DNA from: Somniosus microcephalus
Lineage: Eukaryota
Assembly (NCBI GenBank): GCA_052327205.1
Contig: CM126220.1
Location: 71,486,001 to 71,537,567, forward strand
Reading direction: 5' to 3'
Length of the DNA: 51,567 bases
Position numbers and translations under genes: made by a program. How positions within the stretch are numbered: the first letter of the stretch is position 1; every line of letters begins with the position of its first letter. The notes under the pieces were generated by a model. It saw nothing but the letters and a program-made list of their open reading frames with translations. It searched no databases and was not told the DNA's origin. Below, in pieces: positions 4,143-8,785 of the stretch.

Positions 4143-4398
4143 TGTAGTGTATGTAACTGTTCTACCTTTAAGAGAACTATTGTATGTAACCGTTCACCTT
4201 TAAGAGAACTATTTTAGGTGTGGCACTACTTTATCTTGGCTGCTGTATACTGTAATACCGACGGTGACCACACCGGTATATGAGTGCTGTGTCAGGATTT
4301 ATTGGGCAGATTCGCCCTGACCTTCGAATAGTAAAGTCCTGTTAAAGTTACTCTTGTAGTCTGTGTATTAATTCGCCATAATACCTACAGACTTTACA
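4143..4398 (+). repeat. 5' LTR of element 1
   Basis: TGTAGTG...TTTACA, a direct repeat of 8530-8785, with an internal ~31-bp tandem duplication and an AGTAAA poly(A)-like signal. Confidence 0.95.
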
Positions 4399-4399
4399 G

Positions 4400-4409
4400 T
4401 GGCGACGAG
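4400..4409 (+). promoter_or_regulatory. Primer binding site, complementary to the 3' end of tRNA-Ser(GCU)
   Basis: TGGCGACGAG starts 1 nt after the LTR. The same PBS is present in element 3. Confidence 0.8.
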
Positions 4410-5010
4410 TTCGATCTTACCCTGCGGCAACAATACTTCCGAAGCAGTTAACGAGCGTCGAGAAGAGGCACCCGCTCTCGTCGTTCTGCTGAGAGAAAAC
4501 TCGAGTCTGCAGAGCAAGGAAGAAGGAAGAATTCAGACACGAAGCCTTCCATCAGCAACAGGCACTGATTGTCCCTTCTGCCACGGTGGTGAGTGAGCCG
4601 ATCAGCACGAGAAGCAAGTCGGCCACGGTGACTGTGAGTAAAGGGAAAATAAAAAAATAAACGGAGGATAAGGGCGGTGAACTCGACCACGGTCGGGGGA
4701 AAGGAGCCAGACAGAAGTCGGGCCCAGAGGCGCTGAGACTGGGGCAGCGTGGAGCTCGGAAGCCGCGGTACAAGCGGGCTGGGAGACGCAACGGCGTCGT
4801 GAGACAGCTAGACCGCGACCGGCGAAAAAGGCCGGGCAGCTACCGAGGCCACGAGGCGCTGCGACCGGGATCGTAAGGCGCGGGAAGATATAAAAATAAA
4901 TAAATCACGGAGAACTCAGCCGCAGCCGGGGAGGAAAGCACCGGACTGCGAGAGGGCTGGGAGGCGATTGGAAGCCGCTGAGGGAGAGACAGAGCCCGAG
5001 CGAGCGGGAG

Positions 5011-5228
5011 AGACAGAGCCCGAGCGAGGGAGACTGAGCGAGATCCAGCCAGCGGCTGAAACTGTTCGCCGTCAACGGGTTGTACCCAGCGCCGGTTGCC
5101 CTGCCGAGAAAAGGGAACAACAGAGCCCGAGCGAGGGAGACTGAGCGAGATCCAGCCCAGCGGCTGAAACTGTTCGCCGTCAATGGGTTGTACCCAGCGC
5201 CGGTTGCCCTGCCGAGAAAAGGGAACAA
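5011..5228 (+). repeat. ~109-bp tandem duplication in the CpG-rich 5' leader of element 1
   Basis: ACAGAGCCCGAGCGAGGGAGACTG...AAAAGGGAACA is present at ~5011-5118 and ~5120-5228. Confidence 0.85.
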
Positions 5229-5487
5229 GGAACGCACTGAAGCTGACGCGCAGGCTGCGAACCCCGAAAGCCAGCGGTCGTCGCCCGAGGGAAAAGCTTA
5301 CCCCTCCCGCCAGGGGAAGAAACGCGGGAAGCCGCCAGTAGGCGGGGAAGACGACAGAAGCGGGAAACCGCCATTTTGAAAGTGGGCGGGGAAGAAGACA
5401 AGCGCGGGAAACCGCCATTTTGAAAAAAAAAAAGTTAAAGAAAATTTTCGTGTTTGTTTCGCAGAAAGATAGTGAGAGATAGTGAAG

Positions 5488-8097
5488 ATGCCTAAGCATG
5501 GTAACATCAACAACTTCGATTCCGAGGTGGAAGATTGGGCCACATACGTAGAACGTATCGAGATATATTGTGAGGCCAATAAGATAGCAGATGATGATAA
5601 AGCTCTCACCTTATTAAACGCAATGGGGGCAAAGACATACGGGCTATTGAAGCATCTTCTATCACCAGCTAAACCGGCGGATCAGACTTTCGCTAATATT
5701 GTTGCTGTCCTGAAGGATCATTTGAACCCCACACCACTGATGTTGGCGGAACGATTCAAATTCTATGCGCGAACGCAATGGAAAGAGGAAAGCAACGCGG
5801 AATACTTGGTCGAACTGCGTAGACTAGCGAAATACTGCCAGTTTGGGGAAAATCTGACAGAGGCATTGAGAGACAAGTTCGTGTGCGGGTTGTCGAAGGA
5901 AGGAACACAAAAGCGTCTGCTAGAAGAGAACGATCTCACACTTGATAAGGCTGTCCTTATTGCAGCATCGCACGAAGCCGCAGCGAGAGGCACAGCGGAA
6001 ATGCAGCTGAAGGCAGCGGTACTCAGTGTGGATCAAATTACTTCGGGTACATCGAAATGTTATCGTTGTGGGAAGACAACACACGACCAGAACCAATGCT
6101 GGTTTAAAAACCATCAATGTAGAAAATGTGGCAAACTTGGTCACATAGCTAAGGTATGCCGGTCAGGAAAGAAGACCAACAACAACAACAAAAAGTCACC
6201 GCAGGAAAAGTACAATAAGGTACACAAGGTGGCTGAGAAGAGTTCAGATGAACAGAATTCAGATTCAGACCCAACCGTTCAGGAACTGGGTAGTCTGAGA
6301 ATTCACAATGTGAGTAAGGAAGCTGACCTGCAAACTATCTGGGTCATGCTAAAAATAGCCGGAGTCCAAGTGAAAATGGAATTGGACACAGGATCAGCCC
6401 TATCAGTCATAAATCGAAGGGATTACAACCGGCTATTCTCACACATACCCTTGAGAGATACCAAGATCGTATTGCAGACATACACGGGGCAGAATGTATA
6501 CCCCATGGGAAAGATAAAAGTCAAGGTGAGAGACAGGGGCAAAGAACACCAAGGAATGTATTTATATGTACTACCTGAGGGAGGTCCACCACTTCTGGGA
6601 CGGGAGTGGATCTGGGAAATAAACATGGAATGGCACTATTTAAAAGCAATAATGAGTGAGAACTCGGTGAAGACAATCAGCTCAGACTCTGAAACGGATG
6701 ACGATAAGACCAGCCCAGGTGCGAAAGACAAGTTTAAAATGGACTTGCTGACTAAGGTTGGAAAAACGAAGGAGTGCATAAATGCTTATGCTTCAGAGGA
6801 GAACAAAGTTTCAGAACAGAATTCCACTGAACAACAACAACATAGTTTGACAGAGAATTCTGAGTCTGTCCAGTTTATAGATATGCACAATTCTGAGGAA
6901 CGCCGGGCTCGAACTCAACTCCATTTCAAATTACAACAGCAATTAGAACAATTGAGTTGCCGTCTCGAACAAGAGATGAAAGCAATGAAAAAGTTCTGTG
7001 ACACAGAGTGGGAGAACCTGGAAAGACAACAGAAACAGCTGATGGAGAAAAGGGAGCAGGAGCACACAAACCGTCGGGGCAAGGAGGCCAAACGAATCAA
7101 AGCTGATTCGGTTTCAGGAGGTGCGTGCTTTAATCTGGTGGAGCAAGAGGTTCAGCAACTGAAAGCGCTTGTTAGCGGATTGCAGGCAGAAAAGACTGAT
7201 TTGGTCGCCATGAACTCCGAGCTCCTACTGAAGTTGGGTGCAGCATCACCGGACGATTCAAGTGGGGAAAGTCGAATGGTGGAGGCTGCGGATGATGGCG
7301 AAGTAGAAACAGCAAAGGAGCCCCAGGGCAAGGTTATAAACAGCCCTGCAGCTACTGGGAAACGTATGAGGTCAGAAGAGTTAACGGTCAGCCAACTCCT
7401 TCATATGCTGAAGGACAAGACTCTGAAATGGGAACAAATTGAACAGGAGTTTAAATCTTCAAAGGAGAGGGGTTTGGAGCTCCCAAAAGTTATTGAAATA
7501 GCTGAGGTTGCAACACAGACTGAGAAGATGGCAGCAGAGCAACCCTTGGATGCCAAAAGTACGCTGACTCACGTCAATGTTGAACAACAGAAGGTTGAAA
7601 CAGCTGCTGCAGTAGAGGGATTGAATAGTCCGATCAACCAATCTCTGAATGAAGTTGAAGTATTGAAATCACAAATGACGTCATTAGTAAAAGACTTGCA
7701 GGAAGCCCAGAAGAAGCTGGATGAAGCTGAACGCCTGAAGAAGTCTCTTCAGGAAAGATGTCTGGATTTGGAACAAAAGCTGGCTAATGTCCAGCTGGGT
7801 ATGGAGGAAATAGAAGACCCTCTCACTGGCCTAGCTCAAGATGACACCGAATATTACCATGACCTGTTGGACGACATCGAATATTACGATGACCTGTTCT
7901 GCCCAGCTTGTGATGAAAACTCCCAAAGTGCAGAAACCATGAAGAATCACAAAAAGTCTAAGGAACATCGGGAGATGGTGGCGCTACTACGGAAAAAGGA
8001 GGACGAGAAGGAGGAACTGTGCATGCAGCTGGCAGCTGACAGTGGAGCCCAGAGAGTCTCCAAGAAGCAGAAAAGGAAAAGACGAAGCAGAAGATGA
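5488..8097 (+). CDS. Chimeric Gag-protease fused in frame to STK10/SLK-like, optineurin-like and DNAJC21-like segments
   Basis: Uninterrupted ORF from ATG 5488 with two CCHC knuckles and protease LDTGS. Then [24 protein letters not shown] (6895-7107), [29 protein letters not shown] (~7135-7810) and [26 protein letters not shown] (~7840-8097). Confidence 0.85.
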
Positions 8098-8529
8098 TGA
8101 TCATCTGGACCATCATCATCACTACTAGATCACGCACGGGGTCCCTTCGAACGGAGCCAAATCAGTTTGGAAGTAGAAAAACTTCCCAAGGTACTCAAGT
8201 TTTTACAAGCCAACAATGCTGGTTCAGAAGGACGGAAGTTCAAGCTGTTAAGTCCAGTGAAGGACTATTGGATGAGTCACTCCAGCAACGTGAACCGACT
8301 ACACCACAGGGAACTGCTACACCACTGAGGTGTTGTCAGGACCGAGTCAAGAAGCACGGAAGGCGCATCCACCGAGATTGAATCTGTGAACTGTTTTCCG
8401 CAGAGACTGAATCTGTGAACTGTTTCCGCAGAGACTACATCTGTGAACTGTTTTAACATGAAGTTGGATATATGTTATGATGTTATGTTTAATGGGGAAT
8501 AAGTATGTTGTAAGCTAAAAAGGGAGGAT

Positions 8530-8785
8530 TGTAGTGTATGTAACTGTTCTACCTTTAAGAGAACTATTGTATGTAACCGTTCACCTTTAAGAGAACTATT
8601 TTAGGTGTGGCACTACTTTATCTTGGCTGCTGTATACTGTAATACCGATGGTGACCACACCAGTATATAAGTGCTGTGTCAGGATTTATTGGGCAGATTC
8701 GCCCTGACCTTCGAATAGTAAAGTCCTGTTAAAGTTACTCTTGTAGTCTGTGTATTAATTCGCCATAATACCTACAGACTTTACA
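8530..8785 (+). repeat. 3' LTR of element 1, preceded by PPT GCTAAAAAGGGAGGAT
   Basis: Direct repeat of 4143-4398. Confidence 0.95.

Follow-up and report, generated by a model that had tools for sequence, protein, structure and literature searches.

The element described here lies at positions 4143-8785 of a 51,567-nucleotide stretch of the Somniosus microcephalus genome assembly (contig CM126220.1, positions 71,486,001 to 71,537,567; the whole stretch is hereafter the window). Our overall reading, to which we give a probability of about 0.68, is that it belongs to a large non-autonomous family of shark Gypsy long terminal repeat (LTR) retrotransposons in which pol was replaced by nested pieces of spliced STK10, OPTN and DNAJC21 RNA, likely through template switching by reverse transcriptase (RT). 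The family was likely founded by a circular RNA (circRNA) and is likely mobilized by helper elements; on this reading selection acts on Gag and on the open frame, and the captured host sequence (the cargo) would be translated filler.

Structure of the element and host sources of its cargo

The element is present in the window as one copy, with a pair of 256-bp LTRs that differ by three mismatches and have TG..CA ends. These ends, a short target-site duplication (TSD), a primer binding site and a polypurine tract are traits of the Ty3/Gypsy LTR lineage, of which the element is a non-autonomous member: it retains gag, protease and a remnant of the integrase tail, and is without RT, RNase H or integrase of its own. 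A preliminary description made from the sequence had recognized a young element with near-identical LTRs, a TSD, a primer binding site, a polypurine tract and a single open reading frame (ORF) of 869 codons, and each is confirmed. Its statement that homology to a second Gypsy element in the window (element 3) ends after the protease also holds. ORF residues 1-390 are Gag and protease, 70% identical in amino acids to element 3; similarity ends at residue ~390-395, and element 3 continues into RT, RNase H and integrase in Gypsy order. Neither env nor a kinase domain appears in the ORF list or domain search of the element.

The rest of the ORF derives from three host genes. Best database matches of the cargo are to shark optineurin (E 6e-77, 68%), shark STK10 (E 1e-35, 79%) and DNAJC21 (E 4e-13, 71%); Pfam detects PKK (E 3.5e-12) and zf-C2H2_jaz domains, and a PDB search returned weak optineurin peptide matches alone (E 0.025, 0.11). 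In the assembly the host genes are placed on C17 (OPTN), C8 (STK10) and C1 (DNAJC21 exons 1-4, 2.65-2.675 Mb). Mapped to host exons, the cargo runs through STK10 Eb, Ed and Ee, six OPTN pieces, DNAJC21, and finally STK10 Ea and the start of Eb. Five introns of the genome's own OPTN gene are gone from the OPTN part, and the STK10 part comprises pieces of four exons; this intron-less, exon-by-exon match shows that both were captured from spliced RNA, as had been proposed. The optineurin segment and the DNAJC21 C2H2 finger with its basic tail had been named correctly. The same account had left the kinase source as STK10 or SLK: SLK is rejected, since host STK10 exons match at 88-91% in the window copy and 98-100% in the related family A described below. 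Its inventory of three host genes was right but missed an STK10 piece at 6654-6898, an STK10 scar at ~7802-7818 and an out-of-frame stretch at 8080-8276. The junction from DNAJC21 to STK10 is out of frame in the window copy, and this is where the ORF stops. None of the captured pieces includes the kinase, TBK1-binding or ubiquitin-binding parts of the host proteins. Among the 120 matches listed of 205 (lengths 477-1521), none is a Gag-fusion protein in another species.

Two details concern the host genes themselves. Host OPTN (L054:4780-5360, C17 ~85.885 Mb) carries two 1-nt insertions flanking one splice junction. Judged against an aligned copy of family B (below) and the protein of other sharks, these frame-breaking insertions are probably assembly errors, possibly a real allele. 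The intron following host STK10 exon Ec (L067:3683) has a GC donor.

Nested families and the order of capture

Searching with host parts absent from the window copy revealed two sister families, A and B; the window copy belongs to family C. Family A (98 matches among 150 scored candidates, a few of these being host exons) is laid out as gag-protease, STK10 residues ~388-706, STK10 residues ~289-388 and the integrase tail, in one 848-codon frame with cargo 98-100% identical to the host exons. In family B, a 417-nt deletion and OPTN residues ~131-431 replace the middle of the STK10 cargo, and frames reach ~970 codons. Family C has the DNAJC21 piece inserted inside STK10 exon Ea, together with further deletions. 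An OPTN exon-junction motif has 1,204 exact matches, and DNAJC21 is present in 29 of 30 positionally sampled copies, the remaining one (L188) being a B element with an OPTN-to-Ea deletion and without DNAJC21.

The captured pieces are therefore nested rather than strung end to end. Cargo distance to the host is 0.010 in A, 0.025-0.030 in B, 0.040 in one copy, L171, and 0.07-0.11 in C, and a cargo tree of 48 rows is ordered host, A, B, L171, C, with 100% bootstrap for L171 plus C and for C, and weak branching inside B. From the nesting and this tree, we conclude that captures proceeded from A to B to C. Microhomologies occur at the switch points: 12 nt and 7/8 nt between pol and STK10, 9 nt between STK10 and OPTN, and 7 nt between OPTN and STK10. 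Serial template switching, suggested at the outset, is supported by the microhomologies, with two refinements: the pieces are nested, and the STK10 piece that founded the series is a circular permutation whose junction falls exactly on splice sites. We also observed that LTR divergence is ~1% in A, B and C alike, yet the cargo differs from the host by 7-11% in C and 1% in A, so the C lineage has changed far faster than A or the sampled helpers.

A probable circular RNA founder

In family A the end of STK10 exon Ee, which has a GT donor in the host gene, is fused exactly to the start of the upstream exon Ea, which has an AG acceptor. This back-splice junction is exact in 24 of 24 A copies, with only the AG shared at the junction. 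The A cargo amounts to five STK10 exons (135+675+131+124+180 = 1,245 nt, or 415 codons) with phase 0 at both ends, and contains no STK10 sequence from outside them. It begins and ends at one shared STK10 motif, which parent pol also carries, as an exact 12-nt copy at the protease/RT boundary and as a 7/8-nt copy in the integrase tail where A rejoins. Each exon of the circle is single-copy within a 100 kb gap-free host STK10 locus; the introns flanking the five exons measure 15.5 and 8.0 kb, and the internal ones 0.4-2.7 kb. Because the back-splice is exact, the cargo one turn long, the exons single-copy, and entry and exit at one motif, a captured host circRNA is very probably the source of the founding STK10 piece. 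The permutation also marks the window copy, in which the remnant at 8080-8276 precedes, in host gene order, the piece beginning at 6654. A genomic tandem duplication of STK10 exons was considered as a source and rejected, as each exon occurs once in the host locus. In vitro, according to the passages cited, RNase H-proficient retroviral RTs yield, on circular RNA, short products only (PMC9550094).

Family size, mobilization and expression

A DNA search of the 6.4-Gb genome with the cargo gave 4,796 candidates, and 40 of 40 scored places matched at 99% or more. Allowing up to one mismatch, a search for a 24-nt motif located at the STK10/DNAJC21 junction gave 6,631 matches, against 0 for the control. 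The motif is found in 0/20 A, 0/15 B, 0/20 helper and 0/40 host stretches; it detects 14 of 30 positionally sampled copies, so the number of matches is a lower bound. A motif at the protease/RT boundary of autonomous elements has 2,787 matches, which, being exact, can be set beside the 6,631 in order of magnitude alone. Copies are dispersed: their 3' flanks differ and they have TSDs of their own. Automatic calling recovered an exact 5-bp TSD in the window copy, in 12 of the 20 C copies retrieved at full length and in the majority of A and B copies; several of the remainder have repeats mis-paired by the script or a TSD mismatch. Among copies with clean TSDs, LTR-LTR divergence is 28/3073 in C (n=12), 36/3769 in A (n=16) and 28/2564 in B (n=11). 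The family has evidently amplified without its own pol, as the preliminary description supposed. An assembly chimera is rejected as the origin of the junctions: at least 40 near-identical copies exist in the genome, with different flanks and TSDs.

Autonomous relatives retain frames of 1,317-1,322 codons in 4 of 20 sampled cases. The gag-protease of family A groups with 20 of 30 sampled autonomous elements at ~1.4%, and the tail of family B resembles a second helper subfamily. Mobilization by helper elements in trans therefore appears likely, on the basis of the long-framed relatives and the B tail.

Three organism sets each contain at least half of the cargo's words. Two raw RNA runs of a related organism cover all 30 bins of 5300-8520, and in the stranded-looking run X14 the cargo bins fall overwhelmingly on one strand (e.g. 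120.6 vs 0.7), consistent with sense transcription across the whole cargo. The reads are mostly 90-99% alike and report on the family, not on the window locus. A variant with a 291-nt in-frame cargo deletion (window 7068-7360) dominates the RNA there (305 reads in X14) and is also found in DNA contigs. It constitutes a further subfamily, outside the sampled copies.

Selection on Gag, the frame and the cargo

Ratios of nonsynonymous to synonymous divergence (dN/dS) were derived from the net divergence that separates groups of real copies (modified Nei-Gojobori, kappa 3, codon bootstrap), with a within-family baseline of 0.49-0.88. Gag is under strong purifying selection: C subfamilies give 0.13-0.18 when compared with the autonomous cluster and 0.07-0.10 when compared with one another. 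Protease falls at 0.2-0.4. Cargo amino acids drift near neutrally: dN/dS is 0.73-0.87 against the host and 0.80-0.91 among the C subfamilies, with 1 inside all of these intervals, and the OPTN part gives 0.87-1.13 against the host. The B cargo gives 0.37-0.38 against the host, a figure that includes change on the host branch. Selection on the Gag fusion, as first envisaged, thus stands for Gag-protease and the open frame, but apparently not for the amino acids of the captured parts.

The frame itself has been kept. No shared stop occurs among 223 distinct shared substitutions in the cargo, whereas the observed spectrum would predict ~8. Interior length changes that copies share are in frame (-417, -159, -90, -27, -21, +6, -18, -3 and the DNAJC21 insertion), the exception being a 1-nt deletion common to 2 of 33 C2 copies; of 12 private indels in the C2 ORF, 4 have a length divisible by three. 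Skips seen in reads and contigs measure 291, 231, 66, 39 and 39 nt inside the ORF and 47, 45, 70, 97, 67, 94 and 65 nt outside it, in a listing that leaves out 8 further joints. A 7-nt duplication at 8029 makes the ORF end on the basic tail, and the STK10 remnant behind the new stop accumulates 1-nt indels and stops.

The substitution spectrum has a peculiarity of its own. On the sense strand, shared lineage substitutions in the B/C cargo (window 6654-7811) include T>G 40/223 vs A>C 15; private changes there are mostly transitions (T>G 12/219). The T>G excess may reflect an RT error bias or selection for purine-rich RNA.

Proposed mechanism and alternatives

We propose that, during minus-strand synthesis, RT would have switched from the integrase-tail motif of the parent RNA to the corresponding motif of a five-exon STK10 circRNA packaged with it. 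After copying one round of the circle, across the back-splice junction, it would have come back to the entry site, run off the template there because of an earlier RNase H cut, and returned to the parent at the 12-nt motif copy at the protease/RT boundary, a single pass that would both remove pol and install 415 codons in frame to give family A. An in-frame deletion and an OPTN mRNA segment would then have replaced the middle of the STK10 cargo, giving family B, and further deletions with a DNAJC21 segment placed into exon Ea would have given family C. Co-packaging with helper proteins may require that the element supply its own Gag in cis and that most of its RNA be translated; a cis need for Gag was reportedly seen by Saito in 2008 for mouse IAP I-delta-1. 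Under such a need, Gag sequence and frame would be selected and cargo residues would drift as filler. Translation may run through the cargo because it avoids long-3'-untranslated-region decay or because RNA length must be kept.

Several observations weigh against parts of this proposal. No inverted repeats between the flanking STK10 introns were found at E 1e-5; such repeats are common around circles, not obligatory. The back-splice junction has been replaced by OPTN in B, C and the window copy, where permuted order alone remains, and a linear exon-repeat RNA or trans-splicing would leave the same junction as a circle. Host DNAJC21 exons after exon 4 were found neither genome-wide nor in C1:2.44-2.67 Mb (which has two 500-N gaps), so that intron loss is established for the OPTN and STK10 parts only, and the DNAJC21 piece is assigned by protein similarity to other fishes. 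Cargo dN/dS intervals are wide (e.g. 0.49-1.20), and for the window's subfamily the STK10 part taken by itself has a ratio of 0.48 [0.24-0.99], which leaves room for mild cargo constraint; gag dS exceeds cargo dS, so some of the gag constraint may come from recombination with helpers. Stops make up 1/80 of private codon variants in C2 cargo, at which rate the expected shared stops could be ~3, not ~8 (P ~0.06 vs 3e-4). The duplication at 8029 shortens the ORF by ~93 codons in 20 of 29 sampled C copies (the other 9 read through), and the frame is therefore not needed to its very 3' end. Finally, the RNA runs carry a related-organism label and may not be from the species of this assembly.

The same evidence bears on other explanations. 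The captured domains may work for the element: they may help to assemble particles, bind RNA or enter the nucleus, or may serve as decoys that counter autophagy or innate defence, and fitness would then have risen with every capture. In favour of this, the most derived family, C, outnumbers A by a wide margin (6,631 or more junction matches, against 98 among 150 scored); 56 of 58 C copies keep the C2H2 ligand spacing; a basic tail, reached by different routes, terminates A, B and C alike; and dN/dS of the STK10 part is 0.48-0.77. Set against these are the near-neutral OPTN and between-subfamily cargo ratios given above, loss of the FVEI motif (which we take to have an LC3-binding role) in 34 of 34 copies of the window's subfamily, the abundance in RNA and presence in DNA contigs of the 291-nt cargo deletion, and the failure to capture the kinase, TBK1-binding and ubiquitin-binding parts, and we consider such working cargo unlikely. 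It is tempting to go further and speculate that exactly one circRNA turn founded a self-amplifying exon collector. Coiled coils, a zinc finger or a basic tail in its translated cargo, or the camouflage that host-like cargo offers against silencing by small RNAs, would have made it fitter with each capture until it rivalled or outnumbered its helper, a scenario we regard as doubtful.

It seems quite improbable that the STK10 permutation arose from a linear exon-repeat RNA, a trans-spliced RNA or an extra template switch. DNA cannot tell a circle from linear RNA with repeated exons, the flanking inverted repeats were not found, and other mechanisms can also produce non-colinear junctions, as noted in the cited part of PMC4897178. 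However, a donor and an upstream acceptor meet precisely at the junction, where no more than AG is common to both; the host locus has each exon once; and the cargo is one circle length with nothing from outside the five exons. Still less credible, and in our view very improbable, is the notion that the frame stayed open for neutral reasons (youth, and microhomologies favouring codon phase) with nothing past Gag selected. The low private stop rate would suit it, and microhomology between coding sequences could favour phase; but C cargo has no stop common to its copies at 7-11% divergence from the host, interior length changes that are shared come in multiples of three as opposed to 4/12 private C2 indels, and the STK10 remnant past the new stop gathers 1-nt indels and stops. 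We accordingly retain the reading of a likely circRNA-founded, likely helper-mobilized family with selected Gag and frame.

Features of the element and of the window

Coordinates of the features of the element are collected in Table 1. Elsewhere in the window, element 3 (~24716-30614, minus strand) is a related Gypsy element with gag-PR-RT-RH-IN (protease, RT, RNase H and integrase following gag), interrupted by stops and by a GC-rich repeat at ~26.8-27.8 kb, and a second, unrelated Gypsy element with long gag-pol frames occupies 16868-20761 (plus strand). Frames of a non-LTR retrotransposon RT lie at 399-2992 (plus strand). Sodium:solute symporter exons (Pfam SSF) at 32950-33420 (plus strand) and ~46700-47350 place the window in or beside an SLC5-type gene, in the same orientation as the element. 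An array of ~200 copies of an 18-bp unit, with long spurious ORFs, spans ~47400-51300.

Table 1. Features of the window copy (positions in the window)
Feature	Position	Strand	Remarks
5' target-site duplication GTTGC	4138..4142	+	sequence
5' LTR, 256 bp	4143..4398	+	3 mismatches vs 3' LTR
Primer binding site TGGCGACGAG	4400..4409	+	common to autonomous family; presumably tRNA-Ser
5' leader containing 108-bp direct repeat (5013-5228)	4410..5487	+	
Single stop-free ORF, 869 aa, Gag-protease fused to host cargo	5488..8097	+	
gag with two CCHC knuckles	5488..6180	+	net dN/dS 0.07-0.18
Aspartyl protease	6343..6606	+	DTGS in 58/58 C copies; dN/dS 0.2-0.4
STK10 exon Eb piece (linker, residues ~400-480)	6654..6898	+	90.6% to host exon
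STK10 exons Ed and Ee pieces (PKK coiled coil)	6895..7106	+	spliced junction ~6982; after 417-nt in-frame deletion
Optineurin residues ~131-384, six exon pieces, introns gone	7098..7811	+	entry at 9-nt microhomology
Short 17-nt STK10 exon Ea scar, between OPTN and DNAJC21	~7802..7818	+	
DNAJC21 C2H2 finger and basic tail, inside STK10 exon Ea	7819..8079	+	7-nt tandem duplication at 8029, ORF then ends 8097
STK10 exon Ea end and exon Eb start	8080..8276	+	out of frame, decaying in window's subfamily
Integrase C-terminal tail remnant of parent family	8269..8400	+	
Polypurine tract	8517..8528	+	
3' LTR	8530..8785	+	
3' target-site duplication GTTGC	8786..8790	+	

Relation to known systems and significance

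Each ingredient of this system was already known, from LTR-mediated retroposition, maize Bs1 and circRNA pseudogenes; what is unusual is the scale, the series of intermediates and the one-turn signature. LTR-mediated retroposition in animals, as presented in the cited part of Tan et al. 2016 (PMC5131818), likewise places parts of spliced host mRNAs in an LTR element, with microsimilarity at switch points, chimeras of several genes that are often in frame, and secondary retroposition. The cases in that part are single- or few-copy and circular RNA goes unmentioned there, whereas the shark chimera numbers thousands, its intermediates are still alive and its Gag is selected. Maize Bs1, as portrayed in the relevant sections of PMC5131818 and PMC13317346, is also an LTR element in which three unlinked host-gene pieces replace pol in a chimeric ORF. 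Unlike the shark family, with its thousands of mobile and nested copies, permuted founder and near-neutral cargo, it has 1-5 copies and is read there as a new host gene. The mouse circRFWD2 pseudogenes (Dong et al. 2016, PMC4897178) share, in the portion cited, a non-colinear back-splice junction, nothing from outside the circle, and LTR sequences in the flanks. They number 33 and their mechanism is called mysterious in that portion; in the shark the parent element, both switch points, the one-turn length and the in-frame Gag fusion can be followed at the nucleotide level.

Defective endogenous retroviruses complemented in trans (mouse IAP I-delta-1, cattle ERVK D-type, ETn/MusD), in the cited passages of PMC10924933, similarly outnumber their helpers, and a retained gag region affects their trans-complementation in cis. 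Those elements swap in retroelement sequence or delete internally, whereas in the shark element host exons occupy the gap. As for the acutely transforming retroviruses invoked in the preliminary description, the likeness is sound for the mechanism and fails otherwise, there being no env, no kinase domain and no sign of selected oncogene-like cargo. Neither this family, nor circSTK10, nor a one-turn circRNA capture joined to gag turned up in literature searches, with subscription journals largely outside their coverage.

If the reading is correct, the family would supply a nucleotide-level mechanism by which a circRNA becomes a genomic copy, with one RT pass, one entry and exit site, and pol deleted in the same event. 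The mechanism of such copies was left open by the paper that defined them, in its cited part (PMC4897178). A full series of nested captures in one vertebrate genome would also make exon shuffling by LTR elements readable step by step, and selection on Gag and frame that is separable from selection on cargo would be a natural test of cis needs in non-autonomous LTR elements. For the genome itself, this means thousands of transcribed, open-frame fragments of STK10, OPTN and DNAJC21, an estimated ~30 Mb if junction matches are full-length, which may mimic gene-family expansions and confound RNA-seq and circRNA calls in such sharks.

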